Assembly (NCBI GenBank): GCA_011364965.1
Contig: RDOB01000002.1
Span: forward strand, 448,001-512,000
Origin: Candidatus Heimdallarchaeota archaeon
Lineage (GTDB): Archaea; Asgardarchaeota; Heimdallarchaeia; Hodarchaeales; Hodarchaeaceae
Direction of reading: 5' to 3'
Length of the DNA: 64,000 nt
Shown here: in pieces, positions 24,811-50,717 of the stretch
How positions within the stretch are numbered: position 1 is the first letter of the stretch
Layout: each line of letters opens with the position of its first letter
Program-made: the position numbers and the translations under genes
Notes under the pieces: generated by a model
What the model saw: only the letters and a program-made list of their open reading frames with translations
Told to the model about the DNA's origin: nothing
Databases searched by the model: none

Positions 24811-26868
24811 ATGATCACCAAAAAACGCGTAATTTTTGCCTTATTCTTGTTTATCGCATTAAATCTAATAATATTTTTTAAATCTGAAATAATTTTAGCT
24901 GACACTTCTAAGAATTTGGCTCAAAATCCAGTAGAATGGACTCCTAGCACTCCAGATATTGGAGATATGATAACGATTACATATGATCCATCCGCTGCAG
25001 ATACTGCATTCTCTAGTACACCTACCCGAGTTTATATGATTTGGGGTATGCATGTAAAAGGGAATCAAAACTTAACAGGGAAAGAATTTGGAGCAGTCCC
25101 TCCTTCCATGGAAATGTGGCCAGTTGGTACAGTTTTACATGATATTACAGCAGATCGTTTTGTCAAAACTCCCATGAATGATGTCGGGGGTATTTGGACA
25201 ATTTCAATTATTTTGAATGAAAGGCCAGATTTTTTAGTGGTGTATTTTGAAAATCAAAATGGCGACCGAGATAATAATAACGGTAATTATTGGCTTATTA
25301 ACTCGTTACTAAAAACAGAACGCATCCGAATTATTACGCCATCTTTTGCTGAACCTCTTATCACATTGAATGGATCTGAAATTATGATAAAGGTTGATGC
25401 CCCCGTTATTTCCACTGAGTGGTATATAACATTAGAAAACGTAGATGATCTCTTCGAACCAGCATTAACAACAAATTATGATGTTACTAACGCGATCTGG
25501 GCTCTCACGTTCTCCGCTCCTGCGAAATTAGGACTTTATGATACGAATATTTCATGCAAAGTTAACGGAAATGAAAGATTTGATTGGGAACCAAATTCTA
25601 TCAAGTTAATAGAGGAATTTAAAGCTGAATATAAATTCATCATATTGGCCGATCCGCAAATCCATCGTGATGGATCAGCTGGATATGCTTATCGAAATGA
25701 AGAGAGCGGAATTGGGAATCTTACAGACGTTCTGAAAGAAGTTAATCTACTTAATCCAGAATTTATTCTTGTTGCAGGAGATTTGACTGAATGGACTGAT
25801 GAGATAGCCTTGTTAAATTTCAGAAAATGGTGTAATCTCTATTTAGAAAACGCTCCTGTTGTTTTAACAATGGGAAATCATGGAGATTTTGAAGGTACGG
25901 CGTCCTCTGGAAATTATGAGTGGGGATGTGGAAAAGGCACTTGGTTAAATATAATCGGGTCAACGAGGGGAATATTTTACTATGGAAGTCATGCTATTGT
26001 AAGAGGTGATAGCCATTCGTTACAGTTTAACGATGAAAAAGATGATGGTATAGCTAATTATGAATTTGTCATGGACGCTTTAGATGAAGTAGCTTCAGCA
26101 GACTTGAAATTCCTAATGTTTCACCATCCTTTATCGACATATGGGGTACCTGGTGAAGAAGTTATTCAAGGGGATGCAGAAAGAAATGCAATAATATCCA
26201 AACTGCAATCTATTGGTGCAGCAGCACATTTTCATGGACATTTACATTTTGATAAATACGATAAGACTGGAGACCTTCATCACATAGGTACTACAGAAGC
26301 TGTGGGCGATAATCCCGGATTCCGGATTGTAAACATTGCTAATAATGAAATGATTAATTTTAGTTATGTACCCGCAAATCTCACTGCTTATTATGCCCCC
26401 TCGAATCCTATAGGAGGAGTAAAAGAATACTTCCAAGTTGAAAATGATGGAACTCAGACATCTCAAGCTGCAGCTATTCGGAATTGCTTCAATCAGGACT
26501 TTAAGAATGCCCACTTGCGATTTTACATGCAAAATGGGCCTTCATACCAATTATCGGGCGGAATTCTCTACAATTCATATATACAGGATGGAATACAAGT
26601 TCTCGATGTAGTATATAACCTGAAGAGGAATTCGACACGATTTCTCTCTGTTTATACTGAGACTCCGATAGAATTTACAGACTCGATACCAGTATGCCCT
26701 CCAATAACTGTTCCACCTCCACAAGTTCCCCAACCTCCTTTCACTTCCACTACTACTACTACTACAACAACAACTGGAACAGCAAGTGGATTCTTCTTGA
26801 TTGAGTTACTTTTAGGTTTAGGAATGATTCCACTAATTCATCGATCAACATCTAAAAAGAAGAAATAG
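24811..26868 (+). CDS. Surface-anchored calcineurin-like metallophosphoesterase with an N-terminal CBM-like domain
   Basis: Signal peptide; DNNNGNYW (starch-binding-CBM-like); DPQIH, AGDLTE, GNHGD, FHHP and GHLH; poly-Thr, ASGF, TM and KKKK. Confidence 0.82.
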   Translation: MITKKRVIFALFLFIALNLIIFFKSEIILADTSKNLAQNPVEWTPSTPDIGDMITITYDPSAADTAFSSTPTRVYMIWGMHVKGNQNLTGKEFGAVPPSMEMWPVGTVLHDITADRFVKTPMNDVGGIWTISIILNERPDFLVVYFENQNGDRDNNNGNYWLINSLLKTERIRIITPSFAEPLITLNGSEIMIKVDAPVISTEWYITLENVDDLFEPALTTNYDVTNAIWALTFSAPAKLGLYDTNISCKVNGNERFDWEPNSIKLIEEFKAEYKFIILADPQIHRDGSAGYAYRNEESGIGNLTDVLKEVNLLNPEFILVAGDLTEWTDEIALLNFRKWCNLYLENAPVVLTMGNHGDFEGTASSGNYEWGCGKGTWLNIIGSTRGIFYYGSHAIVRGDSHSLQFNDEKDDGIANYEFVMDALDEVASADLKFLMFHHPLSTYGVPGEEVIQGDAERNAIISKLQSIGAAAHFHGHLHFDKYDKTGDLHHIGTTEAVGDNPGFRIVNIANNEMINFSYVPANLTAYYAPSNPIGGVKEYFQVENDGTQTSQAAAIRNCFNQDFKNAHLRFYMQNGPSYQLSGGILYNSYIQDGIQVLDVVYNLKRNSTRFLSVYTETPIEFTDSIPVCPPITVPPPQVPQPPFTSTTTTTTTTTGTASGFFLIELLLGLGMIPLIHRSTSKKKK

Positions 26869-26890
26869 GATTTCTTCTTCTCCTTTTTTC
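26857..26890 (+). terminator. Hairpin plus T tract overlapping the stop of the phosphoesterase gene
   Basis: AAGAAGAAAT-agg-ATTTCTTCTT followed by CTCCTTTTTT. Confidence 0.5.
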
Positions 26891-26916
26891 TAAATAATTA
26901 AAAAATTATAACCAAG

Positions 26917-27408
26917 ATGGGAGTATTAAGATTGACTAATAATAAGGAGCAATCAAAACTCATTAGAGATCAAAAAGGCAATATAAAAGCTTTAAATGTT
27001 ACCAAAGAAGAGTTTCTGAAGCTTAGACCTGTAATTAGCCCTAATGTGAAGATTTTGAAACGTACGGATGTTGAGATGCTTTTAGAGATTGATATTCAAG
27101 AGATTAAGAAGAAATCTCTAATCAAACGATTATTTCCTACGCCTAATACACGGAAAATTATGCTAGATAGACTAGGAATGGATGTATTTAAACGATGTGA
27201 TGGTAACCATCGAATTAAAGATATATTTCAAGAATTTCAAGATGAATTCAAGCTTACTCCCACAGAAGTTGAAGTATCGGTCCAACAGTATATTTTAAGT
27301 CTAACAGAACGGCACATCATCGGTTTCTTAATACCAAAGGAAATTGTAGGAAAAGAAAAGCTGAAAGATGGAGCGATTGATAAAATACTCATCGATCCCA
27401 ATAGATAA
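26917..27408 (+). CDS. PqqD/RRE-like winged-helix protein
   Basis: LDRLGMDVFKRCDGNHRIKDI...F...EVEVSVQQYILSLTERHII matches the PqqD-family pattern. Confidence 0.75.
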   Translation: MGVLRLTNNKEQSKLIRDQKGNIKALNVTKEEFLKLRPVISPNVKILKRTDVEMLLEIDIQEIKKKSLIKRLFPTPNTRKIMLDRLGMDVFKRCDGNHRIKDIFQEFQDEFKLTPTEVEVSVQQYILSLTERHIIGFLIPKEIVGKEKLKDGAIDKILIDPNR

Positions 27409-27412
27409 AGGA

Positions 27413-28354
27413 TTAATTGAAGTTAATTGCATATTTAATAATTTCTTCAATTTGAGTATGCAAATCTGATTCAGGTTGTTTATCTAAGCGAAAAATAATA
27501 CAGTAGATATCATTTTTCTCCTGATTAAGCCATAAATAAGTCTCAAAGTATCCTTTCCGCGTTTTTAAAGGCATTTTTGAATCAGAACATTGAATTAATT
27601 TTTTTACTTCAATTTTTTTCTTGTAAACTAAATTAGAAAAATCAGGTGTTGGTTTATAATTCGAGGGAATATTGGGTAAATTATTTTTTGCATATTCAGG
27701 AAACCATTCAGGTAATTTATTTGAATCATCAATTTTTTGATTGGCCAATCCAATACGATATGCATAAACCTCCAAGTCTGCTTTACTCAATTCTAAAAAA
27801 GTTAATCCGATCAAAAATTTCCGATTCAATAAATTCATCTCAAATGCAGGCGTATAAACATTTAGATTCGGAGCAGACCATAATAAATATTTTTCCTCTG
27901 AATGACAAATTAAACCTGTCATGATTTCCGTTATTAAGGGTTTAAATACATCTTTTTCCTTGTTTTGATATTGACTGGCACATATTATAACACGTTGAGT
28001 TTTATGACAAACCCAGCTGAGGAGGTAACCCTGTGAATCGCCTTTCTCTAGATCCCAATAAATATAGTAACCATTATGAGCATTAACTTTTTTCTCCCCT
28101 TCGTTTCTAATTTTGATGCCTTTATTATCTTTTTTTAATGTTTTAAAGAGATCCCCTAAAACTTTTTTGGGTTCAGGAGGTTTTTTCTTGATTATGGCCC
28201 AACTGATTTCTAGTCTTTTAGTTGAAGAATCTCTAAATCCAATAAACCCTGTTTCAATTTTTTTCTTTGCAGGAGGTTTCTTATCAAATATAAGACTCCA
28301 ATCAGTTGGAACACTGACAATTAAATGATCCCATCCTAGTTTCTGATATTTCAT
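27413..28354 (-). CDS. Hypothetical soluble protein (possibly two PsbP/DcrB-like domains)
   Basis: 313 aa ORF with GW..L.VSVPTDW and a second W....VYTP half; alpha/beta pattern. Confidence 0.6.
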   Translation of the reverse strand: MKYQKLGWDHLIVSVPTDWSLIFDKKPPAKKKIETGFIGFRDSSTKRLEISWAIIKKKPPEPKKVLGDLFKTLKKDNKGIKIRNEGEKKVNAHNGYYIYWDLEKGDSQGYLLSWVCHKTQRVIICASQYQNKEKDVFKPLITEIMTGLICHSEEKYLLWSAPNLNVYTPAFEMNLLNRKFLIGLTFLELSKADLEVYAYRIGLANQKIDDSNKLPEWFPEYAKNNLPNIPSNYKPTPDFSNLVYKKKIEVKKLIQCSDSKMPLKTRKGYFETYLWLNQEKNDIYCIIFRLDKQPESDLHTQIEEIIKYAINFN

Positions 28355-28724
28355 TTTCTTAATCTTAGGGAATTTAAAGACGTTTATAATTTTACTGACA
28401 AAAGATCAAAAGCCTGAGGTTTGAAAGTTATGAATGATTGTATTGTATCTTTTGAGAATTTCGTTTTGGTCGATTATTGAAAGCAGCAGATCATGCTAAA
28501 TATATTATCCTTCTCATTATTCTATATATAGTCCAATTCAATAGGAATTCGCTTCTCCTTTACTTAACCCATATAGGAAATACATATTTTATTGACCTTT
28601 ATGACAAATAACTTTTAAACAACATAGGGAGGTAAATACTATCTTGTTTTAAACAGATTGATTCATTTCTAGGCTTCAAGACCGAATCTATTAAGGAGCT
28701 GAAGCTAAACATAAGGCGGTAAGT

Positions 28725-29090
28725 ATGTCTGAAACTGCTGTTCAGTGTCCATGTGGATATACAATTGAAGATTACAGAAATTATCTTCTACTCTATCTGA
28801 AAAAAGAAATGGAAGAAATAGATATTCTCTGTCCTAATGAATATTGCTATTTGCGAGAATTGGGATTTTTGAAGTTTAATGTAACAGAAACGGGTGAAAT
28901 TAAGTTCAAAAAGGGGAGGTTTTATGCTCCTTTTGTAACTTGGAATGCAACTCGTATGTCTAGTGAAATGACAGTGAAAATTCTAAAACAACATTTAATC
29001 GATATTACAGAAAAATCAGTTCGATGGGATAAGGTAAAGAGAGGCGCTATTTCGAAGAAACCAGAATCACAGAAGGAGGTTCTCAGTTGA
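28725..29090 (+). CDS. Small putative Zn-binding protein
   Basis: CPCG...CPNEYC; stop overlaps the start of the permease gene. Confidence 0.7.
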   Translation: MSETAVQCPCGYTIEDYRNYLLLYLKKEMEEIDILCPNEYCYLRELGFLKFNVTETGEIKFKKGRFYAPFVTWNATRMSSEMTVKILKQHLIDITEKSVRWDKVKRGAISKKPESQKEVLS

Positions 29091-29689
29091 GTTTAGATTT
29101 ACCTGAACCTCATTTTCCACTCTCTGATGTATTATATCTGTCATTTTCAAATATAAGACGAAGGTTCTTTCGTTCAGTTATTACCGCTTTGGGAATAATC
29201 CTTGGAATTGCCTTCATGTCGGCATTATTAACTAATTCACTTACTTTAGGTCTCATGCGGGCGGAAACAGGTGTCGAAGCATATCAATATTGGTTAGTCG
29301 GGATTTCATTAATTGTTTGTTTCGGAGGTATTACCAATTCTATGTTAATGGCAGTAAATGAGAGAGTAAAGGAGATTGGCGTATATAAATGTATTGGAGG
29401 ATTAGATTCTCATATTGTAAGGCTGTTTATTGCTGAGGCATTAATGCTAGGGATTCTAGGAGGTACCTTAGGCTCTTTCATTGGTATTTCTATGGGTATA
29501 GCTATTAATTTGAATCGATTTAGCTTTGAAGACCTTTATCCAGTATTAATGGAGAATTTATCTGTTTTAATACTTCTATTTGGATTTTGCTTAGTTATCT
29601 CTGTTGCATTAACTGCATTAGCAACATTCATTCCTGCGAAACGTGCAGCAAATCTATCTCCAGCAGAAGCCCTTCGATATGAAAATTAG
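29087..29689 (+). CDS. Minimal FtsX/MacB-type ABC permease (no extracellular domain)
   Basis: RRFFRSVITALGIILGIA, NSMLMAVNERVKEIGVYKCIG, PAKRAANLSPAEALRYE. Confidence 0.9.
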   Translation: MSLDLPEPHFPLSDVLYLSFSNIRRRFFRSVITALGIILGIAFMSALLTNSLTLGLMRAETGVEAYQYWLVGISLIVCFGGITNSMLMAVNERVKEIGVYKCIGGLDSHIVRLFIAEALMLGILGGTLGSFIGISMGIAINLNRFSFEDLYPVLMENLSVLILLFGFCLVISVALTALATFIPAKRAANLSPAEALRYEN

Positions 29690-29703
29690 GAGCTGTTCCC
29701 AGC

Positions 29704-30426
29704 GTGAGCTTAACTGAATATGTAGTCGAAATATCTGATGTCTATAAAACCTATATGATGGGCAAAATAGAAATCCACGCGCTTCAAGGGATCACGTTCA
29801 AGATAAAACGTGGAGAATATGTTAGTATAATGGGACCGAGTGGTTCAGGAAAGAGTACTATTTTTAATGCTGTCGGAGGTCTTGATATTGTTGACAGTGG
29901 CGAAATTTTCATAGATCAAGTTGATATAGCTGAATTAGATGCTTATGAATTGGCTTGGTTACGTAATCGTAAAATTGGATATATTTTTCAAACTTTTAAC
30001 CTGCTTTTGGCATTCTCTGCACAAGAAAACGTTGAAACACCCATGGTATTCGCAGGACTTCCTCGTGAAGAAAGAAGAAAGAAATCTAAAGAGCTTTTAA
30101 GGATAGTAGGTCTTGAACATCGAATGAAAAATAAACCTGGACAATTAAGTGGTGGCCAACAGCAAAGAGTTGCAATTGCGAGGGCATTAGCGAATGATCC
30201 TGCAATTGTGCTAGCTGATGAACCGACAGCAAATTTAGATCTTGCAACAGGTCTTGAGGTTATTGACTTATTAAAAAAATTGAATTTGGAACAGGGAACC
30301 ACGATAATCACGGCAACACACGATTTAAAAATGATTAATATTAGTGATAGAATTATTTGGGTTCGTGATGGACGAGTAGACCGTATTGAAGATCGTGCTG
30401 ATGTTCAAATTAGCGCAATATCATAA
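29704..30426 (+). CDS. ABC ATPase, LolD/MacB type (copy 1)
   Basis: [48 protein letters not shown]. Confidence 0.95.
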   Translation: MSLTEYVVEISDVYKTYMMGKIEIHALQGITFKIKRGEYVSIMGPSGSGKSTIFNAVGGLDIVDSGEIFIDQVDIAELDAYELAWLRNRKIGYIFQTFNLLLAFSAQENVETPMVFAGLPREERRKKSKELLRIVGLEHRMKNKPGQLSGGQQQRVAIARALANDPAIVLADEPTANLDLATGLEVIDLLKKLNLEQGTTIITATHDLKMINISDRIIWVRDGRVDRIEDRADVQISAIS

Positions 30427-30436
30427 GGTGAGTAGG

Positions 30437-31168
30437 ATGACTGAAGAGATTACAATTCGGATGGAAAATGTTAAAAAAATTTTCATGATGGGGACAGAGG
30501 AAGTTCAAGCTCTCCGAGGCATAAACCTACAAATTCCCCGCGGTGAATTTCATGTTATTATGGGTCCATCCGGCTCTGGAAAAACGACTTTTTTGAACAT
30601 GGTTGGAGCTCTGGATGTACCTACAGAGGGAGAGGTTTACTTTGAAGATGTTCCATTATCAAGTTTGAATAAGAAACAGCTCGCTTCTTTAAGATCATAT
30701 AAGATTGGGTTCATTTTCCAGACTTTCAATCTTGTTCCTGTAATAACTGCTTTAGAAAATGTCTCTCTTCCTTTAGTATTCCAAAATTACTCTCGTGAAG
30801 AGCGGAAAAGACGAGCTGAAAGCATTTTAAAGCGCGTGGGGTTGGGGGATAGATTAAATCATACTCCAGATGAATTATCAGGGGGACAGCAGCAACGAGT
30901 AGCTATTGCGCGCGCTTTAGCTGGTGAACCTAGTTTAATATTAGCTGATGAACCTACAGGTAATCTTGACCTTGCTACTGGATTTCAAATTGTAGAATTA
31001 TTACGCGAATTATGTCAAGAGACTGGAGTGACTGTTATTAATTCTACTCATGATTTAAAGCTTATAGATATTGCAGATCGCATTTCATGGTTACGAGATG
31101 GAGAAATTACACGTACCCAAGAGAAATTGGATGTCTCAATAACTGCTGCAGATGTTAGAATAAATTAG
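30437..31168 (+). CDS. ABC ATPase, LolD/MacB type (copy 2)
   Basis: [48 protein letters not shown]. Confidence 0.95.
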
Positions 31169-31252
31169 TATAGAAGAAAATCAAAAGCGGAAGAAAAAAA
31201 AGAGAGAAAAACTGGTTAAAACTAATAATTAACAAAATGGATGTGAGAAAAA

Positions 31253-31459
31253 TTGGCTGATGTTGGAAGAATAATTTCAAGGTACGGAGACTATATTGCA
31301 ATAGTATGTATAGTATTAGCTGTGGTGATGGCTATTCTCAGTGCGGATCTAAAGACTATATTCGGAGAGCTTTTGCTCTTTATTATTGAAATAGCTTTAT
31401 TTATTATTATTATTGCAACAGCAATACTAGGTCAGAGGATATCAAAACCAACAGGATAA
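31253..31459 (+). CDS. Small two-TM membrane protein
   Basis: 68 aa with two hydrophobic helices, co-oriented after the ATPases. Confidence 0.6.
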   Translation: MADVGRIISRYGDYIAIVCIVLAVVMAILSADLKTIFGELLLFIIEIALFIIIIATAILGQRISKPTG

Positions 31460-31485
31460 TTTATGAGATCCATTTAGAGGTTAAA

Positions 31486-33921
31486 TTAAATAAATTTAAC
31501 CTCTAGATAGAGTACATCATTTTCATTCAAATCTAGCAAAAATGAGTTATTTTCAAGAATTCTATACTTCTCAAGTTCTTGAAGGAAATCATTTTTCCTG
31601 ATTCTTTTTATTTTAACGCTTTTTGTTTCCCCACACTTCTGATTAAATGTAATTTTGACTTCTTTATTGTGTGGGATTGGATTATAAATCAAAAAGGAAA
31701 TTTCTTTTTGTGGGAACTCATTCAAATCTATGAAATTAAATAGATCTAGATTTAGGACCAATATCTCTGGATCATTACACTTTGCTATAGCCTCAAACAT
31801 AAGATAAAGCCAGATTACTTCTCCTGCGCCATAAATTTCACGTCCGAGTATACCTGTTCTTTTTCCTTTTGGAATGAAACTCTGAGTCGAGGAAAAATGA
31901 GGTGCGGTTTCTAGCATTTCAAGATCTTCAAAAGGTATGAATTTACATGGGCTCTCGATACGGGGAGGATAAATAAATTCTTTTTCTAAAACTTCTGAAA
32001 AATAATAAAAACTGTTTATTCTTATTAAATTAAAGAATTTAAGAAGACCCAAAGGAAAATCGTTTCCCTTTTCGATCTTAGTTTTAAGAAGTTTAAGCAA
32101 TGGAAATATTGATTCTACGTTCTCTTTCATAGCAGGATAACGGATCCCCACACAAGCCATGACTAAACCCAAATTACTTCTCTTATTTTTCCAGTTGAAA
32201 GCTTCTGTGTTATCTTCATACCAATAGAACATTCGAGTTTCATTTAATGCAGTTAAATTAGCAAAATCAAGATACTTATCCTCTCCTGTAAGGTTATATA
32301 ATTCAGTTAAGCCAGCAACTCCATAAGCAAGTTCTAAAGGTTCCCAAAATAATTCATCAGGAGAGAAACTGATAAATTTATCTGCAGCCTTTCGTGCTTC
32401 AGTTAAATATACTGAATCAGAGAATAAAGAATATGCTTGGATCATAATATAGATGTGAATTCCTAAGCAGGCATAATTCTTAGCAATAAGTGTCCAATCC
32501 ATGTTCTGTTTTCCTCGATGATCTATATAGGATCTTAATCTTCCTTCGTCCTTTTCAAGGGCAATTTTAAGAGGTTGAAGCGAAAAAGGATCGTAAAAAG
32601 CTGTGATCTCATAACCATGCTTTTCTACGAATTCAATTGATTTATTAGCCATATTTCTAAAGGTTTCGATGTAAGTATTTTTCTCACCTAAAATGAGGGA
32701 TTGTAGCCGAATTAACCATGCGAAACGTAAAATAGGTTCGAAAAAGTACCAAGAATCCCCTATTGATATGCGAGAAGGTTTTATAATTTTAATTTGCATA
32801 TTCTCCTGATCAATGATTAGACCGTTATACAAGTAATTCTCTTTCTCATCAATGAAGTCCTTTACAGCAGAGATTGTGCGTCTTATGTGATTTTCCTGTT
32901 GTTTGTTACTATGCAATTTTAAGAAGAGAATCCAAGGAGGAAGAATGTCCAACATAGTCATAGTTTCTGCTGCAAATTGGGATTTTTTTATCCCCTTTCG
33001 ACGTTGCTTTTCAGATTCATCTTGTACATATGCGAAGTATTTGGGAGCCTGCGGGTCAACCCAGCAATATTTCTCTTTTAATAAGTCGTTGATGCATTGT
33101 TGGCTAAAGTAAGTCCATGTCAAGTCTTTTTGGGGAAGATTTTGAGGAAAAGGAATAAAGCTAGGTAGTAATTCAAAACTGCGAGTAACCAGATTACGAA
33201 CAGCTTCCCATTGATTGGAAATATTTTCATGATATTCTTGTGAAATAAGAAAATTATAGTTTAAACGATTTTGAGGAGGAATTTTTACTTGTTTTGGTAA
33301 TTGAACCCGATTAAGCAATCCAAATACACCTTCAGGACGAAAGGCACATTCATAAATTGAGAAACGCTCAATCGTCTCTGGATTCATCCATTGCATTTCA
33401 GAAAAATCTACAAAAAAGTAAGTGGATAATGATGAGTTAGTATTCCATAAGTAACAAGCAGGCATATCATTGGATTTCCATTCATCTGTGTGAGGTGTAT
33501 GGCGCGTAGGTTGGTTAACAAAAATATGGTTTTTATCCTGTCTGGAAGAAGTGGAGGTCATTAAAGTAACTTCAGGAGCAAATTTATCGATCATTATTTC
33601 TTTCTTGGTAATAAGAGTAATTTTAAAATAAAACCAGAGTGTCTCTTTTAGAAATTTTTCAACACTTAATTCAATAATGTATCGATTATCGGTAAGAGAG
33701 GAAATAATTATATCAATTTTTTCTAAAGATGAATTATTTTCTATAATTTTTAGTTTAGTTTTTCCAAATTGCTTTACAAACGAACTTATATTCCAATTAA
33801 AATTATTTATCCACACTCTATTATGTAATAGCTGCAATGAAATATTGTACTCCTCTTCCATTTTAATAAGTTGGATTTTATGACTTTGAGTCATAATTTC
33901 TGATATGATTTGCGTTCGCAT
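31486..33921 (-). CDS. Cytoplasmic putative (alpha/alpha)6-barrel glycoside-hydrolase-like protein; paralog of 48768-50717
   Basis: No signal peptide; YL.EA..AA and LYNLTGEDKYLDFA helical repeats; motif blocks shared with 48768-50717. Confidence 0.65.
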   Translation of the reverse strand: MRTQIISEIMTQSHKIQLIKMEEEYNISLQLLHNRVWINNFNWNISSFVKQFGKTKLKIIENNSSLEKIDIIISSLTDNRYIIELSVEKFLKETLWFYFKITLITKKEIMIDKFAPEVTLMTSTSSRQDKNHIFVNQPTRHTPHTDEWKSNDMPACYLWNTNSSLSTYFFVDFSEMQWMNPETIERFSIYECAFRPEGVFGLLNRVQLPKQVKIPPQNRLNYNFLISQEYHENISNQWEAVRNLVTRSFELLPSFIPFPQNLPQKDLTWTYFSQQCINDLLKEKYCWVDPQAPKYFAYVQDESEKQRRKGIKKSQFAAETMTMLDILPPWILFLKLHSNKQQENHIRRTISAVKDFIDEKENYLYNGLIIDQENMQIKIIKPSRISIGDSWYFFEPILRFAWLIRLQSLILGEKNTYIETFRNMANKSIEFVEKHGYEITAFYDPFSLQPLKIALEKDEGRLRSYIDHRGKQNMDWTLIAKNYACLGIHIYIMIQAYSLFSDSVYLTEARKAADKFISFSPDELFWEPLELAYGVAGLTELYNLTGEDKYLDFANLTALNETRMFYWYEDNTEAFNWKNKRSNLGLVMACVGIRYPAMKENVESIFPLLKLLKTKIEKGNDFPLGLLKFFNLIRINSFYYFSEVLEKEFIYPPRIESPCKFIPFEDLEMLETAPHFSSTQSFIPKGKRTGILGREIYGAGEVIWLYLMFEAIAKCNDPEILVLNLDLFNFIDLNEFPQKEISFLIYNPIPHNKEVKITFNQKCGETKSVKIKRIRKNDFLQELEKYRILENNSFLLDLNENDVLYLEVKFI

Positions 33922-34198
33922 ACAAGTTACTTCCGATTGGAACCTTTACAGTCTTAATAACCTACATTTTATTAATAAAATTTAATATTATCTGTTAAGA
34001 TCGAACATACTTTAAAATAAATATATTGCGTGTTTCTCTCGAGAGAATTACAGCAAAAACATTGAAATTATTTCAGTCCCTCACCCAGATATCAGATATG
34101 GGTAAGTAAAATTGCATAAAATTTAATAAATAAACTTGAAAGTAAGTTATAACTCGTTAAATGATAGAATATTATCTGCTCAAGTGCCTGTGATTCCT

Positions 34199-36388: not shown

Positions 36389-36405
36389 GAATTAGTGAGT
36401 AGAAA

Positions 36406-40835: not shown

Positions 40836-40850
40836 TTAAGAGGGTATAGA

Positions 40851-42737: not shown

Positions 42738-42754
42738 GAATAGAATCGACAATA

Positions 42755-43438
42755 TTAGATTCTACTCTCAATCATTTTTGTGACCTTTTCTAAATGGGTC
42801 GTTGTGATTTCCAACGCTTGAATGATTGAATCAATAGTCATTACGAATCTCTTTTTTCTTACGATTCCTTCAAGGTATTTCTCAAGTGTGATATTCCAAA
42901 TAATTGATGAAGGAGATTTGAAGTATTTCTTGAATTCTAATAGATATTGTTCGGGATCTTTCGTATTTATCAGTGGAGAATAAAGCTGAATATTCAAACT
43001 TTCTGGTTTAATATTCTTCAAGTGCGTCTGAAGGTCAATATCCTGCGTTAACAGTTCAGAAAGTGCATCAGAGATCATTAAATTCGGTATTTCTTGTTTT
43101 AAGTATGTTAAGCTAGAAGAACTTGTGAAATAGTAATATTTCTTTATAACTCCTCTTTGCTTTAATTCACACTCCACTCCTTTTAGACCTTGAAATAAAA
43201 ATTTATCTTGATTGGTAAACTCTTCTTCAGAAACGAGAGTTTTTGAAGCTATAAATTGCCATGATTTATCAGCAGAATATGAAAGACGTTTAGGTCTTAA
43301 AAGTATTGAATCAAACGAAGATCTATCAAATGGAATTAGTACACTCCCTCCAATATTTGAAATTTGTAATTCGCCATATTTACCCAGATATTTCGCAAAT
43401 GGGACAAGTAAGATATCGGAATAGGAATCTGTCATCAT
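42755..43438 (-). CDS. Hypothetical protein
   Basis: 227 aa ORF filling the gap; no motif recognised. Confidence 0.6.
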   Translation of the reverse strand: MMTDSYSDILLVPFAKYLGKYGELQISNIGGSVLIPFDRSSFDSILLRPKRLSYSADKSWQFIASKTLVSEEEFTNQDKFLFQGLKGVECELKQRGVIKKYYYFTSSSSLTYLKQEIPNLMISDALSELLTQDIDLQTHLKNIKPESLNIQLYSPLINTKDPEQYLLEFKKYFKSPSSIIWNITLEKYLEGIVRKKRFVMTIDSIIQALEITTTHLEKVTKMIESRI

Positions 43439-43613: not shown

Positions 43614-45836
43614 ATGAGAAATATCAGGTCTGGAATCGTAATTCTTATTTTTTTAAGCTTAATCTCACTTCAAGTATATAATGTCAGTAATAATTTGAGA
43701 GATGACCAAGGTCTTAATTCCCCCCTTCCTTCTCTCAGTACAAAACAAGCTGATATATTAAAGATAGATATTCAAGTAACTGCCCCAAATGGTTATTCAA
43801 TGCAAGGAAATACTCCAATCATATTGAAACTTTCAACTATAGCTGCACAATTACCTGGAGGATACGATGCATTTGGTGATACAACACCTGCAGACTCCAC
43901 TGACAACATAAAATGGACAGGATCTTATGTAACTTATGAAAATGATATTATTCCAAGTCAAGTTGATGATATTGATAGTACGATCGGATATTCTGCTGAT
44001 GATGAATTTTTGTTTCAGCTTCCGAGCGATGTTTCTTTAGCATCAGGTGAATCGACTGATTTCGCACTTTATATTGGTACAGAAGAATTAAATTTACCAG
44101 AGCCGATTTTCCCTGAAACATGTCCTATCTATGACTATCCGGAATTGAAAGAAGTACAACAAAGATTCCCAGATATGCTTGGAACAGTTTACAATCTTGA
44201 TAACGGAAAGATAAGGGTTAGCGCTCTTGTTGATGCTGCTTGGAGTTCTGGCGGTATGTATCATCTTGCTTTAACCGATGAATTAGGTGAAAACACTTGG
44301 GATGCTATTAAACAAGGTTTTCTTGAAGACTGGGAAGCTTGGAAATGGGCTCGTTTTGCTACAGTCGAGCAATTTATAGAACTAAACGATGCTGCAGGTT
44401 CTAATCCCTTTTATTTACCAGATCCAAGTAGAACATCATTGATAAGTGGGCCTGTGAGATGTCGGATACAAATGCGCTCAACTCCTCCTTATGGTAAAGC
44501 TGCTTCATCTTGGGGAACCATTCCAAATCTCTATGGACTTGTTACATATAATCTTTTTGCCAACTTACCGTATGTAGACTATATATTAGATACAACAGGA
44601 TCAGCTAAAGATGAACATCCAACACTAATTATAGAGCTTCAAAACCGGGAATTTAATCCTGGAGGATACGGAAGTCCTTATAAGGGGTTATATTTTCCAG
44701 GATATGGCTGGCAGGATCGTTCACCTGATGATTTGGACACACATATAGCCACATCTTCCGATTTTACTGACCCTTGGTATATTGAAAAATTACCGCCAGG
44801 TGAGATAATGAATCCTGACTGGGCAGATTCTGACAAGCTAGGTGTTGGAATTATTTTTAATGATGCTGGTCTATCTAATATCACATGGAAACGAGGCTCT
44901 GAAAGCGTAAATCTTGTTTATGATGCAGCAGAGATTCCTTTGCATGCGAGATATCTTCCCTATGACGTTACTGTTACAGATGATGCAATATCGTATATGG
45001 AGGCAGCATATGAGGAATGGCTACGACCTGATCCAGATTTCTCCTTTTCTGTTTCTACTGTAAATGAATTACCTTTTGAAGCCATCTTCGTGAGTAGACC
45101 TGATGTTTATTATGACAATAACACTAACCTCATCCAAATTGAGAATATTACGGCTATTTCGACACAACTTGGGGTTATTAATAATACCATTTCTTCCACT
45201 CATACCTATGAGGTGGTAACTGCTCGTCAAAAGACCTCTACGGGACTAACCGGAGATCTTATTTGGAATTCGACAACTTCTTCTTGGGAAGTAACAAATG
45301 TGGATGTTTCTTCATTAGATCTTGAAATAGCCTATACGGTTTTCGCTACATTCCAAATAGGCGAAATCATTGGTAAAAGTCCGTATTCAAAATCCTTTCC
45401 AGAGATTCCTGATATTTATGCACCCACTATTACGAGCGTCATCCAATCACCTATGGCTACCGCAATTATCCGGCACACAGATGAGGTGAACGTCTCTGCT
45501 CTTGTTACAGATGATGATTCAGGAGTTGAGAAAGTCATTTTATCCTATAATAACGGTGAATGGTTCAATATAACAATGTCCTTAATTTCAGGGCTTTATG
45601 TTGGAACAATCCCTCCTCAAGATGAAGGATTAACAATCTGGTACAAAATCATTGCATACGATTATGAAGGAAACTGGAATGATACAGATCTATTTTCCTA
45701 TACAATAGCGATTGAATATCGGCCAGGGCAAGGATTACTTCCATTGCTTGGAATTTCTGCAATTATTATAATTGCAGTAGTAGTTGCCTTGAGAACAATG
45801 GGAATGCATCGCATTAAATACGATCAGGTTGAATAG
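43614..45836 (+). CDS. Secreted, C-terminally anchored surface protein; paralog of 46126-47583, with an extra Ig-like domain
   Basis: GGAGG RBS, signal peptide, PSQVDD...DEFLFQLP...GES..F.LY, GPVR, C-terminal TM. Confidence 0.75.
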   Translation: MRNIRSGIVILIFLSLISLQVYNVSNNLRDDQGLNSPLPSLSTKQADILKIDIQVTAPNGYSMQGNTPIILKLSTIAAQLPGGYDAFGDTTPADSTDNIKWTGSYVTYENDIIPSQVDDIDSTIGYSADDEFLFQLPSDVSLASGESTDFALYIGTEELNLPEPIFPETCPIYDYPELKEVQQRFPDMLGTVYNLDNGKIRVSALVDAAWSSGGMYHLALTDELGENTWDAIKQGFLEDWEAWKWARFATVEQFIELNDAAGSNPFYLPDPSRTSLISGPVRCRIQMRSTPPYGKAASSWGTIPNLYGLVTYNLFANLPYVDYILDTTGSAKDEHPTLIIELQNREFNPGGYGSPYKGLYFPGYGWQDRSPDDLDTHIATSSDFTDPWYIEKLPPGEIMNPDWADSDKLGVGIIFNDAGLSNITWKRGSESVNLVYDAAEIPLHARYLPYDVTVTDDAISYMEAAYEEWLRPDPDFSFSVSTVNELPFEAIFVSRPDVYYDNNTNLIQIENITAISTQLGVINNTISSTHTYEVVTARQKTSTGLTGDLIWNSTTSSWEVTNVDVSSLDLEIAYTVFATFQIGEIIGKSPYSKSFPEIPDIYAPTITSVIQSPMATAIIRHTDEVNVSALVTDDDSGVEKVILSYNNGEWFNITMSLISGLYVGTIPPQDEGLTIWYKIIAYDYEGNWNDTDLFSYTIAIEYRPGQGLLPLLGISAIIIIAVVVALRTMGMHRIKYDQVE

Positions 45837-46125
45837 ATAACTGAGAATCTTTAATAAGCAGAAAGTTAAGATTCTCAACCTTTTTCTATTTTTTTTTGAA
45901 TTCAATATTGATAGAGAAGTGTCTATCTTTTCCATTATTAAGGTAAACTCGAATTAGCTTAATCTCTTACTTCACCCATATAATTGATACGGCTTAAAAT
46001 CCAATCTAATCTGGAAAATCTATCGTTAAACTTAAATAAGAATATACGTATCAGTTCCCGTTGTTAGAGAAGATAATCCTAACAATGAATTGAGATAAAA
46101 CTCGTCTTGAAAAGAGGAGAATCTA

Positions 46126-47583
46126 ATGCGAAAGAATAAATTAGCTTTTTCATTCTTGTTTGCTGCGATCTTTTTGTCACTCTTTGTTGTACCCACAATC
46201 GTTAGTGCTGCAGAGGGTAAAAAAGTAGCTGTGTTCAAAGTGACCGCAGGAACAGATGATATAGTAGCAAAAACCCCCATCGTTATCAAAGTTGAGGATT
46301 TACCAGAAGGGGTTACTGCATTAGCAACTGCAGTTGTATATGATGGAAGTGATGCTTTACCCACTCAAGCAGATAATTTGTACGGTGATAGTGCCATTGA
46401 TGAAATAGTATTCCAATTACCCGAAACGATTGCTGCAGGTGAATCTGCATCTTTTACACTCTATGTGGACGAAGAAGCATCTAATAATGGACAAAATGCT
46501 AGCGCTACCATTGATCTTGCACATGAGGATCATTATAATGAAACTTATGAGAATTGGCTACCTGCTGCTTATGTAGCAGGTTATAAGAATGCTTCTGGTT
46601 ATGCACCAGCAGTCGATGAAGTTGGTGAAGTGATTTGGGTTGAAACTGACTGGGCTATTCTATGTTTATATGTATCTGCTGGTTGGCGTCAGGGAACATG
46701 GAAGCATGCTTACATTAAAAACTCCAATCATGATGCATTAATGGCAAATTATGATCCTTGGACTGATTGGCGTTGGCAATGGCTTCGTTTTGGATACGAA
46801 TCCGATTATGGTTGGCATAACGGAGATTACCCAGATGAGGTTATGATTGCTAAAGTAGGACCTGTAAGAGCTGTAGTACAGACAAAAACTGGAGTTGGTT
46901 ATGTTGGACCCACAGGAAACGTTGATAATCTAAAATTACTCCGAACCTATACAATTTATAGTGGTTTCCAAGGTTTGAGGCAAAATATCCGTATGACTGG
47001 TTCGGATGCTGCTCAAGCTGCCACTGATTTTACTGCCCTGTATAATGGAGAAAACCTCACATTCGTTAGTAAATGGATGGACTTCGGTGTAGAAAGCACA
47101 GATGATCCTTGGGTTTATGTAGCCACTGGAAATAAATACGATCGAGTATATTCTCCAGGAACACCTAATGCTGGAGGAAATTCAAACCGTCAGAATGGTG
47201 ATAACCAGTATCTTGAACTAGCTGAGATGGAAGATTCGTATTTTGCTATGTACAGTAGTACTACCAATAATGGATATGTTATCAACTTCGGACTCAATTT
47301 TACCTGGATCATGGATTACGTTGTTGGTATTGATTGGTCGGATGGAGAAATTGTCGTTAAGCAAGAATACGATAAATTCCCATTAACTGGTGTTGAGCGA
47401 GTTTTCATTCCGTTTGGCGGATCTACCACTGATGTTGAGGCAAAAATTGATGGTTTGAATGCTATGTGGACTGCTGACTTTTCCTATGAAGTTACCAAAC
47501 CTGCTCCCGCTCCTGGATTCGAGCTTTTCGTTGGATTGTTTGCCTTCGCTGCTATAGCAATCTTTTATAAAAAGAGGAGATAA
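46126..47583 (+). CDS. Surface protein with a PGF-CTERM-type anchor; Trp/Tyr-rich, possibly carbohydrate-binding
   Basis: Signal peptide, PTQADN...DEIVFQLP...GES.SF.LY, GPVR, PAPGFE followed by TM and KKRR. Confidence 0.78.
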   Translation: MRKNKLAFSFLFAAIFLSLFVVPTIVSAAEGKKVAVFKVTAGTDDIVAKTPIVIKVEDLPEGVTALATAVVYDGSDALPTQADNLYGDSAIDEIVFQLPETIAAGESASFTLYVDEEASNNGQNASATIDLAHEDHYNETYENWLPAAYVAGYKNASGYAPAVDEVGEVIWVETDWAILCLYVSAGWRQGTWKHAYIKNSNHDALMANYDPWTDWRWQWLRFGYESDYGWHNGDYPDEVMIAKVGPVRAVVQTKTGVGYVGPTGNVDNLKLLRTYTIYSGFQGLRQNIRMTGSDAAQAATDFTALYNGENLTFVSKWMDFGVESTDDPWVYVATGNKYDRVYSPGTPNAGGNSNRQNGDNQYLELAEMEDSYFAMYSSTTNNGYVINFGLNFTWIMDYVVGIDWSDGEIVVKQEYDKFPLTGVERVFIPFGGSTTDVEAKIDGLNAMWTADFSYEVTKPAPAPGFELFVGLFAFAAIAIFYKKRR

Positions 47584-47612
47584 ATCCTCTCCTTCCCCCT
47601 TTTTTTATAATT

Positions 47613-47834
47613 TTAGGTTAAAATTACCCATGTTTCTTTATCTTTGGTTAATTCTTTCACAATTTCTTTCTCTTTTAGTAGTTCTAGTGCTTTCAAGAAG
47701 TATATATTTGCTAGTTTAGTCTGTTTCTTCAACTCCAACATTGAAAGTTTTTTTTTATTATGTTCTAATGTTTCAAGAATTGTACCTTGACTCATTCCAA
47801 GAATTCGAGAAGGAATTACATTTGCAGACATCAT
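47613..47834 (-). CDS. Small winged-helix protein
   Basis: ILETL...LSMLELKKQTKL....KALELLKEKEIV pattern; last gene of the GH130 operon. Confidence 0.6.
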   Translation of the reverse strand: MMSANVIPSRILGMSQGTILETLEHNKKKLSMLELKKQTKLANIYFLKALELLKEKEIVKELTKDKETWVILT

Positions 47835-47846
47835 TAAAACCTTATT

Positions 47847-48743
47847 CTAAAGAGCTTGCAGGAGTTTTGTTTTGTCAATGAAAGCGACTGCTATACATTT
47901 ATCAGCAGCTCCATAATAAACCAAAAATTTCTTATCTTTCTCGACCACTCCACAAGTAAAACAAACATTTGGTACGTCTCCTTCCTTTTCGTAATCTAAT
48001 TCAGGCTTTAAAATCGGATCCTCGATAATACTAATAATCTTCGTGGGATCCTTCAGATCAAGAAGCATTACTCCTAAACTATAATGTAATTCCTTACTTA
48101 CACCATGATAGAAATTCACCCATCCTTCATCTGTTTTAATTGGGGGTGCTCCTGCACCTACTTTGAAATCTTGCCAAGAGTTTTTGATAGGAGAGAAGAA
48201 TTTTTTATGATCCGTCCAATTTTTCAGATCTTTTGAGTATGCAATCCACATATCAGGTTCTGGTGCTCGATGCATTAGTGCATAACGTCCATTTATTTTC
48301 TCTGGAAATAATACTCCATCTTTATCACGATACTCATTAATTACTGTTCCATATTTTTTGAATGTTTTGAAGTCAGAGGTTGAAGCAATTCCTATATGGA
48401 AATCCACATCCCCTGCGGGAACAGGTGTTCGAACTGCGGTATAACAGATGTAATATTTTCCTTCCAACCATGTTATGCGGGGATCCTCGACTCCATACTT
48501 TTCAAATGGTTCCTCTGGTACCATTACGGGTTCTGGTCGTGCTTTAAAATTATAACCATCATCACTCTCTGCCAAACCTAAAGTGGAAATATACGTTTCA
48601 TAATTTCCAATTGCACGATATAATAAAATTATTTTTTCTTTGAATAGCGTTGCTCCGCAGTTAAAAACTGCACCTTGTTGCCATTCATAATTAGGATTCG
48701 GTTTCAATACTGGATTTTTCTTATAACGCTCTAAATATACCAT
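47847..48743 (-). CDS. GH130 family glycosidase / beta-mannoside phosphorylase-like
   Basis: AVFNCGA, LLYRA, GVEDPRIT, DKDGVLFPEKINGRYALMHR, KVGAGAPPIKT, GDVPNVCF, YYGAAD. Confidence 0.93.
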   Translation of the reverse strand: MVYLERYKKNPVLKPNPNYEWQQGAVFNCGATLFKEKIILLYRAIGNYETYISTLGLAESDDGYNFKARPEPVMVPEEPFEKYGVEDPRITWLEGKYYICYTAVRTPVPAGDVDFHIGIASTSDFKTFKKYGTVINEYRDKDGVLFPEKINGRYALMHRAPEPDMWIAYSKDLKNWTDHKKFFSPIKNSWQDFKVGAGAPPIKTDEGWVNFYHGVSKELHYSLGVMLLDLKDPTKIISIIEDPILKPELDYEKEGDVPNVCFTCGVVEKDKKFLVYYGAADKCIAVAFIDKTKLLQAL

Positions 48744-48767
48744 TTTATTTTCATTCCTTTCAATATT

Positions 48768-50717
48768 TCATTTTTTTGGTTGTAATATCTTTACAAAGAA
48801 TATTGTAAGTACAATTAAAGATCCTATTAGAAAGATTATGATTGGCACTGATTCTTCAAGCGAAGGATAATGACTTTGGGGAGTTGTTGTTGCAGTTGTA
48901 GTACTTGTTTCTGTTAATATTGCGCTTGATGTAGCAGTTGTTAACCAATTGGTTTCCTTTGGAGTATATTCGAAAGAAATCATATTATCGGAATTAATTG
49001 TCAAATAAGATGATCCTAAACTAGGAAGAGTTATATTAAATGCCTCTCCTGGTTGGATGTTCTCTAATAAAAGAGACCCATTCGCATAAATATTATAAGG
49101 GGCATTCATTTGCTTTAAAGTGAATTCTAAGGTCTTTGATTCGGTATATGGATTAAAAACAATAAATTGTCGTCGATTTGGAGTGGTTGGATAGCCACGA
49201 TCAAATATATTAAGATTTAGAATCATTGCATTCCTATCAGATGATTCAGCAAGGGCTTCAAATAGTAACATCAGCCAAAAAGTTTCCCCAGCACCATAGA
49301 TCTCTTTACCATTGTAGCCAGTTAAATAACGATAACTTTCTGGTTCATATTCTCTCACGGCATAATAATCGATATCCTCATATGGGATATACTGCAGACT
49401 TGTAGGTCCAAAAGGTCTTTCCTGTTCATCAGGGATATTCGGAGAGAAAAAGTAGAAATGATTGATCCTATTAAGATTGAAGATTTTTAGTGGTTCAATG
49501 GCTTTAAAATTTGGGATTTTATATAAGAATTTGAATAAATCTACCCAAAAAATTATACTTTCGATATTTTCTTTTGCAGCAGGTGCATTAATTCCCCCAG
49601 TTTCTTTAGGATTATAATAAGGTGAATAAAGGCCGTCCCGCCACGTTAAAGGAAGCCAATCACTTGATTGAGGATAAAAATTTTCTAATCCAGTTGAGCC
49701 ATGGTTATAGTACATTGCTTGCTGTTCTGCATAAAAGAATTCTAAAGCTAATTGAACAAAGTCTCTAGGAGTATCGATAATGTCATCAATTAAATCATAT
49801 TGAATTAATTTCGCAGATGCCGCAACTGCAGCTGCTAACTCTTGTGGTTCATATAATAGCATATAAGGTGGTTGAACCAAACGCATTGTAGCTAAAATTT
49901 TATCTGCTTCCTCTAATAAAGTGATATTTCCTGTTAGTTCATATGCAGTTATCAAACTATATGCTAATAAACCTCCAGTACAGTAGTTTACAGTATTATA
50001 TCCACTTGCAGCATATTTAGTTATGGGGTCAACAAATTGAGGAAAGAGATAATTAAAATTATGTGCCATATCTATGGCTGACTGTAAGCTCCCAAAATAG
50101 GGTTCACCTAATACAGTTTCATTAGAAATCGAATAAAGATGTCCCCATTTTAGTACCGAGTTTTCCATGAAATACCAACTATCATGCTTTCCCTCATTTG
50201 GACGATTAGTCGATTGTTTAGTAATAGGATTATAATAATCGGGTAAATCATTTATCATGTCCTCTAATATATTCATACGAGATGTATTTGATGGAAATAA
50301 ACGCAAATATTGATATAACGGCCAGATTACATCCATTGTACTCATTAATTCAACAATTTCACGTATTCTATCAGCACCTCCCCATCCGTCTGTACCTTTA
50401 ACATAGGGCCTGAATCCCTTGATATTAGTAATAGGTTCAATTATCCAGCTAAGATCAAAGATCATTAAATCTTCTATACTCTTCTCCGCATAATCTGTCC
50501 ATGATGTTGCATTTTCTGGAAAATTACTATAACTTGGCAAAGTTTCTAAATCCGTCTTCTTTTGAGAAATCATTGCTTCCCAAGTGGTTTGAAAAGTGTC
50601 AGAGCTTTGATCAATTTGAAAAAAATTAGAACTCGGAGTAATAAACGGAAGAATAAAAATACAAAGGAATCCTCCGGTAATAAATATTGTAGTTGTTTTT
50701 CTATTCACGTTAATCAT
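48768..50717 (-). CDS. Secreted, membrane-anchored putative (alpha/alpha)6-barrel glycoside-hydrolase-like protein; paralog of 31486-33921
   Basis: Signal peptide, AYELTGNITLLEEA, Thr-rich linker and C-terminal TM; shared DSWYF, KEN.ESI and G.EIYGAGE motifs. Confidence 0.7.
   Translation of the reverse strand: MINVNRKTTTIFITGGFLCIFILPFITPSSNFFQIDQSSDTFQTTWEAMISQKKTDLETLPSYSNFPENATSWTDYAEKSIEDLMIFDLSWIIEPITNIKGFRPYVKGTDGWGGADRIREIVELMSTMDVIWPLYQYLRLFPSNTSRMNILEDMINDLPDYYNPITKQSTNRPNEGKHDSWYFMENSVLKWGHLYSISNETVLGEPYFGSLQSAIDMAHNFNYLFPQFVDPITKYAASGYNTVNYCTGGLLAYSLITAYELTGNITLLEEADKILATMRLVQPPYMLLYEPQELAAAVAASAKLIQYDLIDDIIDTPRDFVQLALEFFYAEQQAMYYNHGSTGLENFYPQSSDWLPLTWRDGLYSPYYNPKETGGINAPAAKENIESIIFWVDLFKFLYKIPNFKAIEPLKIFNLNRINHFYFFSPNIPDEQERPFGPTSLQYIPYEDIDYYAVREYEPESYRYLTGYNGKEIYGAGETFWLMLLFEALAESSDRNAMILNLNIFDRGYPTTPNRRQFIVFNPYTESKTLEFTLKQMNAPYNIYANGSLLLENIQPGEAFNITLPSLGSSYLTINSDNMISFEYTPKETNWLTTATSSAILTETSTTTATTTPQSHYPSLEESVPIIIFLIGSLIVLTIFFVKILQPKK

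Follow-up and report, generated by a model that had tools for sequence, protein, structure and literature searches.

Type VII ATP-binding cassette (ABC) mechanotransducers, of the MacB/FtsX type, and OPT/YSL elevator carriers have been thought of as independent superfamilies. Known OPTs are stand-alone proton symporters, and in the energy-coupling factor (ECF) transporters of group II, EcfAA'T serves many S-components. In barley HvYS1, a member of the OPT/YSL family, 2 identical subunits with scaffold and core domains form a dimer that operates by elevator-like transport (PMC9691689). In the present study, we analyzed a 64-kb window, i.e., the whole stretch of DNA considered here (GC content of ~34%), from the 2.97-Mb metagenome-assembled genome of an Asgard archaeon, which is 87% complete. 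The locus at positions 24811–50717 of the window encodes what appears to be a type VII ABC system with an OPT-fold membrane partner, widespread in archaea and bacteria and undescribed in the literature that we found, which would join the 2 superfamilies.

The gene inventory is based on a list of open reading frames (ORFs) and on Pfam matches of the window proteins, with topology and location taken from hydropathy; it agrees with that of an earlier reading of this DNA (hereafter, the first-pass annotation), save for one correction to the coordinates of the largest gene. The motor part comprises a mini-FtsX permease of 200 aa with 4 transmembrane (TM) segments and no ectodomain (29087–29689, + strand; PF02687, 2.6e-17), recognized also by alignment and co-occurrence, and 2 tandem ATPase genes, ABC1 (29704–30426, + strand; PF00005) and ABC2 (30386–31168, + strand; the likely true start is the ATG at 30437). 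The assignment of both ATPases to the LolD/MacB type holds: they are 52% identical to each other, Walker A, Walker B, the signature, and the H-loop are intact in both, and their best NCBIfam models are LolD, MacB, DevA, and FtsE, with every score below its cut-off. ABC1 is 61% identical to its ortholog, the single ATPase of Armatimonadota; ABC2 is an Asgard-specific duplicate, and a 242-aa ortholog of it is found in another locus of our survey (L018). The permease trio consists of the OPT-fold permease A (OPT-A; 34136–36388, + strand; 750 aa, DUF6785 + DUF6784, Pfam 1.6e-37), a giant permease carrying M28, MacB_PCD, and FtsX regions (36399–40835, + strand; a frame of 1,478 codons), and the OPT-fold permease B (OPT-B; 40851–42737, + strand; 628 aa), which begins 15 nt past the stop of the giant permease and belongs to a divergent OPT/YSL family. 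The FtsX family PF02687 is matched in both the giant and the mini permease, and the coupling-helix motif ER.(K/R)EI...G, located between TM2 and TM3, is nearly invariant in both permease families (ER.KEIG..KC.G in the mini-FtsX alignment), a sign that docking of an ATPase has been retained by both.

A scan of GTDB, using one genome per species and 2 peptide patterns, yielded 225 relatives of the giant permease, in Asgard archaea, Bathyarchaeia, Brockarchaeota, Thermoprotei, and Nitrososphaerota as well as in Armatimonadota, Latescibacterota, Brocadiaceae, Omnitrophota, and others. We retained 80 of these loci and scored their six-frame ORFs with profiles of the window proteins. Where at least 2.5 kb was available on both flanks (46 loci), the giant permease had an OPT-like neighbor in 41 cases and was adjoined by OPT-B in 38, the adjacency extending over Asgard, Thermoproteota, Armatimonadota, Latescibacterota, and others; the gap was 30 nt or less in 25 of the 42 co-directional giant permease/OPT-B pairs. 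The gene order is the same throughout in a complete Heimdall-type genome, and the order DUF6785, giant permease, OPT-B is also present in other Asgard genomes and recurs at ~30% identity in Nitrososphaerota and other Thermoproteota, the core trio twice adjoining a GH130 gene in these comparisons. In eleven Armatimonadota loci, the genes for the giant permease, OPT-B, the 313-aa protein described below, PqqD, mini-FtsX, and the ATPase follow one another in one direction. Moreover, the giant permease is fused to OPT-B in an Armatimonadaceae genome (L055) and to DUF6785 in 2 loci of Latescibacterota (L094 and L102), the latter being 87% identical to each other and hence representing one event; all 3 fused genes are single frames without stops or N, giving 2 independent fusion events.

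The components also keep company across genomes. In a sample of 41 Heimdall-class genomes, DUF6785, OPT-B, and mini-FtsX (at least 70% identity) were found in an identical set of 12, always on one contig, and a thirteenth genome has mini-FtsX on a contig fragment. Among 81 Armatimonadota genomes, 64 carry the giant permease, and 63 of these have a short match of the mini-FtsX type; mini-FtsX occurs in none of the 17 genomes lacking the giant permease, 5 of which give only weak matches, inside ordinary FtsX permeases of 400–510 codons. Related genomes are not independent in such counts; the pattern is nevertheless consistent in 2 domains of life. Similar gene sets in other archaea and in bacteria, to which the first-pass annotation had referred, thus do exist, and the components co-occur as more than chance neighbors. 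No characterized transporter corresponding to the set was found in our comparisons or in the literature, where searches for DUF6785, or for FtsX together with M28 and OPT, with PqqD, or with the OPT family and GH130, returned no description of the system. Collectively, synteny, fusions, and co-occurrence make it very probable that the components of the locus constitute one conserved functional system. The layout in pairs that had been read from this locus is a feature of the Asgard version; elsewhere it breaks down, bacteria having one ATPase gene and often one OPT-like gene.

In several genomes the motor and the permease modules are uncoupled in position and in number. In 5 genomes where the motor does not adjoin the giant permease, one mini-FtsX gene is found elsewhere, next to an ATPase gene in 4 of them. 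These genomes encode 1, at least 6, at least 6, 5, and 8 giant permeases, respectively, and those with 5–8 giant permeases have a single mini-FtsX/ATPase pair. As a separate observation, 2 genomes of the same genus contain a second, diverged full set (G008:C49:157302-170175 and G004:C104:549-13553), with mini-FtsX at 45%–46% identity, a DUF6785 match, and OPT-B at 31%–32% identity, so that duplication or transfer of the whole system does take place within the genus.

The architecture of the giant permease was derived from its topology and from an alignment of 5 orthologs from Asgard to Nitrososphaerota (27%–67% identity). An N-terminal anchor is followed by an ectodomain of ~780 aa, 3 extra TM helices (residues 813–885), an amphipathic helix with TM1, a predicted periplasmic core domain, TM2–4, and a conserved cytoplasmic C-terminal domain of ~170 aa. 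In a profile search of PDB, the ectodomain matched the PA-M28 aminopeptidase 2ek8 (1e-19) as well as the transferrin receptor and nicalin, and the C-terminal part matched MacB (5lil, 5e-8), the profile aligning with MacB residues 272–655. The MacB_PCD match (PF12704) reaches 22.4 bits, under the cut-off of 27, and unmarked matches are present in the orthologs. The model of TM2–4 (pLDDT 88) aligned with YtrEF, MacB, BceAB, FtsEX, LolCDE, and HrtBA at VIA Z scores of 9.4–10.6, the best being YtrEF and MacB (Z 10.6, root-mean-square deviation 2.3–2.4 over 125–126 residues). Foldseek returned no match at E 0.001 or better for the C-terminal part of the protein, and VIA-align gave middling matches of the C-terminal domain to KA1, Bet v1, Aha1, and DcrB-like folds (Z 8–9). 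The family is large: a threshold of E 1e-30 or better gives 1,252 clusters at 50% identity, and most members have 1,450–1,650 aa. Four forms of 2,451–3,053 aa (P0123, P0165, P0167, and P0177) have far larger ectodomains, and in these, too, the protein ends in the conserved C-terminal module.

The M28 fold is retained in the ectodomain (PF04389, 9.6e-14), and its di-zinc site is not, as assessed by alignment to 1amp and across the 5 orthologs (AAP numbering). H97 is replaced by Tyr (His in 1 of 5), D117 by an invariant Glu, the catalytic base E151 by an invariant His, E152 by Asn, Gly, or His, and H256 by Asn, Gly, or Tyr, while D179 is probably retained in 4 of 5. The ectodomain is accordingly either a pseudo-peptidase or a domain with an altered site; the Glu and His that invariably occupy a former metal position and the former base position may mark a site that is altered and not empty.

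The one correction concerns the start of this gene. Positions 36406–40835 had been taken as one open frame; the ATG at 36406 lies one base out of frame, and the long frame is open from stop to stop over 36399–40835, with its first in-frame ATG, GTG, or TTG at 36708. Between the out-of-frame ATG and the long frame lies a tract of 10 T residues (36433–36442, + strand); with 11 T residues instead, translation from the ATG at 36406 would produce an ordinary signal anchor. Among the orthologs, one carries a T10 tract as well, immediately preceded by an ATG that is in frame, and another has T11 and an in-frame GTG. We considered an assembly error as the source of the frame break; this is unsupported and the tract is probably not an assembly slip, because contigs of 3 runs from 3 studies (Logan assemblies) reproduce T10 exactly. 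Translation could begin at a near-cognate start or involve slippage on the T10 tract, or this copy could be damaged.

The 2 OPT-like proteins had been called paralogs. BLASTP between them is not significant (E 0.15); at the level of family profiles, the relationship is confirmed, the DUF6785 and OPT-B families aligning over 578 columns with 99.8% probability (hhalign, E 5.7e-28), so that the 2 proteins are true, if distant, paralogs, apparently within the OPT superfamily. Pfam OPT (PF03169) is matched by 9 of 17 homologs of the 628-aa protein (best 5.7e-18); OPT-B of the window itself has no Pfam match at E up to 1, and when PDB sequences were searched with the OPT-B profile, no relevant match emerged, although a structure has been solved for one relative, HvYS1. 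A heterodimer-like pair of the 2 paralogs is plausible by analogy, because HvYS1 is a homodimer of the elevator type. Some DUF6785 genes have other surroundings: in one bacterial locus (L013:4215-17353), 2 copies lie beside GH172, GH39, P-II, and an ammonium transporter, and the surrounding 10 kb contain no FtsX gene. In the locus L016:5167-12721 (GCA_012974705.1), the gene for a 46%-identical DUF6785 protein is preceded by one for a 568-aa protein of no known kind and followed, 3 kb further on, by a PqqD-like gene, with no giant permease on the 13-kb contig, which may represent a reduced or rearranged form.

Several small proteins, most of them predicted to be cytoplasmic, accompany the membrane components. 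The PqqD/RRE-like protein (26917–27408, + strand; 163 aa) exceeds the Pfam cut-off (PF05402, 28.7 bits versus 23.4), its NCBIfam PqqD and ScmD matches being under cut-off, and no partner enzyme (radical SAM, YcaO, or lasso cyclase) or precursor of a ribosomally synthesized and post-translationally modified peptide was found near the PqqD gene among the genes of the locus or of the bacterial operons. The neighboring cytoplasmic protein of 313 aa (27413–28354, − strand) is predicted to have a tandem PsbP/Mog1/DcrB/EagT6-like fold (AlphaFold2 model, pLDDT 86; Foldseek match to PsbP, 4.8e-6, probability 1.0), with Cys115 and His150 invariant in the alignment; its Atlas neighbors are unnamed clusters from Bathyarchaeota, Thermoproteota, and Armatimonadota, i.e., the range of the system. 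A cytoplasmic protein of 121 aa with 4 Cys residues (28725–29090, + strand), the gene for which overlaps the mini-FtsX start, is unrelated to the PqqD-like protein by BLASTP and, among the loci scored, has orthologs only in the Asgard loci L025 and L028. The ATPase genes are followed by a gene for a 68-aa peptide with 2 TM segments (31253–31459, + strand; 75-aa counterpart in L018). A cytoplasmic 227-aa protein to which no family was assigned (42755–43438, − strand) recurs beside the module in archaea, with matches in L025, L028, L044, and L050 and a 226-aa protein at the same position in L021.

The remaining genes give the locus its glycan context. A cytoplasmic GH130 (47847–48743, − strand; PF04041, 7e-67, 226 bits) is nearest to β-1,2-mannoside phosphorylases, the closest structures being 1,2-β-oligomannan phosphorylase (9fj8, 3.7e-76) and β-1,2-mannobiose phosphorylase (7fip, 1e-75). 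Two paralogs of a putative glycan enzyme bracket the locus, a cytoplasmic one of 811 aa without TM segment (31486–33921, − strand) and a surface-anchored one of 649 aa (48768–50717, − strand); they are 27% identical (BLASTP, E 5e-34), and their (α/α)6 fold is suggested by an Atlas lead to GH127/GH76-like clusters as its sole basis. Likewise paralogous are a surface-anchored protein of 740 aa with a DUF4861-like N-terminal part (43614–45836, + strand) and a surface-anchored DUF4861 protein of 485 aa (46126–47583, + strand; PF16153, 1.9e-10), with a BLASTP E of 2e-11, so that both pairs proposed earlier are real. Together with a calcineurin-like phosphoesterase of 685 aa (24811–26868, + strand; Pfam Metallophos, 2.9e-10), the 740-, 485-, and 649-aa proteins have a signal peptide and a C-terminal TM anchor. 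In the wider survey, GH130 flanks the module again in L021, L023, and L048, and among 140 archaeal flanking genes, Pfam identified AP_endonuc_2 in 5, GH3 in 3, and GFO/IDH/MocA in 3. The resemblance to a polysaccharide utilization locus (PUL) that had been noted before thus applies here and in some Thermoproteota (GH130, GH3, GFO/IDH/MocA) and does not extend to bacteria. An additional (α/α)6-type protein, with weak GlcNAc 2-epimerase, GH88, and GH76 matches, is encoded 17 kb upstream of the locus (6038–8242, + strand).

We give about an even chance to the reading that an ATP-driven receptor or loader is coupled to a pair of OPT-fold carriers for the uptake of oligomers, here mannoside-containing. 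The type VII ABC membrane subunits would be the giant permease and mini-FtsX, paired asymmetrically in the way of LolCE; each would dock one ATPase, here as an ABC1/ABC2 heterodimer. The degenerate aminopeptidase/PA ectodomain together with the putative MacB-type core domain would act as an ATP-moved ligand receptor, the giant subunit would be physically associated with the DUF6785-type permease and OPT-B, and this OPT-fold pair would be the actual path across the membrane, by analogy with HvYS1 as a dimeric elevator carrier. On the cytoplasmic side would act the PqqD-like, tandem PsbP-like, and 227-aa proteins. The cargo would be oligomers, either β-mannoside oligosaccharides or glycopeptides, which the surface-anchored enzymes encoded here would set free and which, once imported, would become substrates of the GH130 phosphorylase and the 811-aa enzyme in the cytoplasm. 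Whereas domain make-up, paralogy, gene linkage, fusions, and co-occurrence are demonstrated by the analyses above, we infer how the parts assemble, that ATP hydrolysis is coupled to the OPT pair, that transport is inward, and what the cargo is. Import is favored because OPTs are importers and no other transporter is encoded in the locus or the remaining window; glycan import in particular is favored here because signal peptides are absent from GH130 and the 811-aa paralog, in contrast to 4 surface-anchored proteins of the locus, and because GH130 is nearest to β-1,2-mannoside phosphorylases and recurs beside the module in 3 other loci. That the system imports a glycan or glycopeptide falls somewhat short of an even chance in our estimate. 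A further step, which we put forward only tentatively and consider rather doubtful, is that the mechanotransducer loads or gates an elevator-type OPT carrier pair and that one motor is shared, as in ECF transporters, among many receptor–carrier modules of differing specificity, making the system an uptake route.

Several points weigh against uptake by such a machine. To our knowledge, no type VII ABC system imports: MacB, LolCDE, FtsEX, BceAB, and HrtBA extrude, extract, or activate outside. In bacteria, the system is mostly single-copy, is present in 64 of the 81 Armatimonadota genomes, and lies among housekeeping genes, which is more in keeping with a general role in the envelope than with one specific to glycans; among 130 bacterial flanking genes, Pfam revealed no enrichment of carbohydrate-active enzymes (CAZymes) but housekeeping families, Lgt and LspA occurring twice each, too few to weigh. 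The sugar signal of the archaeal flanks is mild and stands beside methyltransferases and URO-D. OPT, M28/PA, and PqqD are peptide-handling families, and peptides are therefore as plausible a cargo as sugars. Bacterial DUF6785 proteins also occur without an adjoining FtsX gene, and the lack of an in-frame canonical start in the giant permease makes the expression of this copy uncertain. As to the single heteromeric complex that the first-pass annotation had proposed, the conserved functional set stands, and a physical complex has one weak prediction in its favor. The giant permease (FtsX part, residues 900–1478) with mini-FtsX scored 0.32, the best control scoring 0.00, with runs agreeing in at least 67% of contacts and a partner pLDDT of at least 70; of 80 solved complexes, 58 attained the mark for such predictions, as did 2 of 110 mismatched pairs; at 0.60 or under, only 7 of the 80 and both mismatches attained it. 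LolCDE-like complexes have been solved, and memory of them may contribute to this result.

The alternative that fares best has the same multi-subunit system work outward: a component of the envelope, for example a peptide or glyco-conjugate, would be exported, flipped, or assembled, with the OPT-fold proteins as the conduit and the ectodomain as a chaperone or assembly platform on the outer face, in the manner of LolCDE or FtsEX. Outward action is established for all characterized type VII ABC systems, and the single-copy, near-universal presence in Armatimonadota among housekeeping neighbors would suit it, as would the cytoplasmic partners: PqqD/RRE-like proteins and tandem PsbP/EagT6-like folds elsewhere hold peptides or hydrophobic segments before hand-over, and the PqqD gene abuts that of mini-FtsX in bacteria. 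However, characterized OPT/YSL proteins import (PMC9691689, and knowledge of the family), 5–8 copies in small archaeal genomes are typical of nutrient uptake families, the module adjoins cytoplasmic catabolic enzymes here and in the 3 further GH130-flanked loci, and the locus contains no precursor peptide or biosynthetic enzyme. On balance, we consider outward transport unlikely.

Still less probable is an FtsEX-like regulator, in which the motor and the dead-peptidase ectodomain would bind and activate surface hydrolases while the OPT proteins import on their own, driven by protons. Control of extracytoplasmic hydrolases by type VII ABC systems has a precedent in FtsEX with EnvC, PcsB, or CwlO, the locus encodes 4 surface-anchored enzymes or binding proteins, and some bacterial DUF6785 genes lie beside GH172 and GH39 genes with no FtsX gene adjoining. 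Nevertheless, the fusions of the giant permease to OPT-fold proteins and the tight translational coupling point to direct physical coupling, and outside Asgard the module is not accompanied by conserved counterparts of the surface enzymes. Finally, that an ordinary MacB-type exporter and 2 independent secondary transporters are mere neighbors in a glycan locus, as might be read from the separate transcription units of the motor genes (28725–31459) and the permease trio (34136–42737), with an oppositely oriented gene between them, is largely refuted by cross-domain synteny, fusions, and near-perfect phyletic co-occurrence, and is very improbable.

Beyond the locus, the window contains further genes that we record for completeness. 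Directly downstream (50914–54048, − strand) is the gene for a helical protein of 1,044 aa ending in zinc-ribbon and RING-like motifs, with weak Pfam matches to DZR, zf-RING_2, and Prok-RING_1. A multi-heme cytochrome c (MtrC/c7/c552-like) adjoins cytochrome c maturation genes in this Asgard genome (4156–5754 and 8262–13227), namely those for CcmF/ResB-like and CcmC-like proteins, the CcmA ATPase, and CcmB. An Arf-family small GTPase domain (3.4e-11) is present in a protein of 297 aa (58820–59713, + strand), which is followed by a GAF-histidine kinase.

The system is present in about four fifths of the sampled Armatimonadota, and its copy number reaches 8 in small archaeal genomes. If its ATP-driven part is indeed coupled to the OPT-fold pair, this would change the view of what MacB/FtsX-type systems can do and could explain the uptake of complex organic matter by many uncultured heterotrophs, including Hodarchaeales. 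Should the reading of import by a shared motor be true, the system would be the first importing member of the MacB/FtsX superfamily and a major route by which Asgard, Thermoproteota, Armatimonadota, Latescibacterota, and uncultured heterotrophs related to them take up oligosaccharides or (glyco)peptides. The six-gene operon is expected in cultured Armatimonadota, and the question is experimentally approachable.

Of the described systems, LolCDE offers a close parallel to the motor. Here, too, 2 different FtsX-type permeases would pair with 2 LolD-type ATPases, and the 4-TM FtsX fold appears to carry a periplasmic core domain between TM1 and TM2 (TM2–4 model versus LolC, Z 9.6). Unlike in LolCDE, one subunit is devoid of an ectodomain, whereas the giant permease adds a 780-aa, apparently dead-peptidase ectodomain, 3 TM helices, and a cytoplasmic C-terminal domain; OPT-fold proteins are obligate partners, joined in the cytoplasm by PqqD-like and PsbP-like proteins; and all scores are under the LolC, LolE, and LolD family cut-offs. 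Given its presence in archaea and monoderms, the system cannot sort outer-membrane lipoproteins. With FtsEX (EnvC/PcsB/CwlO), MacAB-TolC, BceAB, HrtBA, and YtrEF, it shares the FtsX fold, the coupling-helix motif, and the expected mechanotransmission, but these are not known to have a partner of secondary-transporter fold or an M28/PA pseudo-peptidase ectodomain.

On the carrier side, some members of the OPT-B family match Pfam OPT and the DUF6785 family is homologous to them over the full length, which would link both to OPT/YSL (TCDB 2.A.67); the window proteins, however, are very divergent and are encoded with, and in other genomes sometimes fused to, an ABC-type permease. The ECF transporters resemble the system in having one motor gene set per genome versus several substrate-side modules, and ArsAB provides a precedent for an ATPase driving a protein of secondary-carrier fold. 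Nevertheless, neither is related to it in sequence or fold, so that these are analogies only, motor sharing being deduced here from gene counts. As in the PUL of Bacteroidota (SusC/SusD), surface enzymes and binding proteins, a membrane transporter of its own, and glycoside phosphorylases of the cytoplasm or periplasm are combined in one locus, and transporter paralogs are expanded in some genomes; in contrast to the PUL, Pfam detected no SusC or SusD families in the locus, there is no TonB-dependent step and no outer membrane, and the link to CAZymes is not general. Finally, the M28 + PA architecture of the ectodomain is that of the transferrin receptor, nicalin, nicastrin, and GCPII, and the di-zinc site has been lost in the transferrin receptor and nicalin as well, but in the system described here the M28/PA unit is fused to an ABC-type permease.

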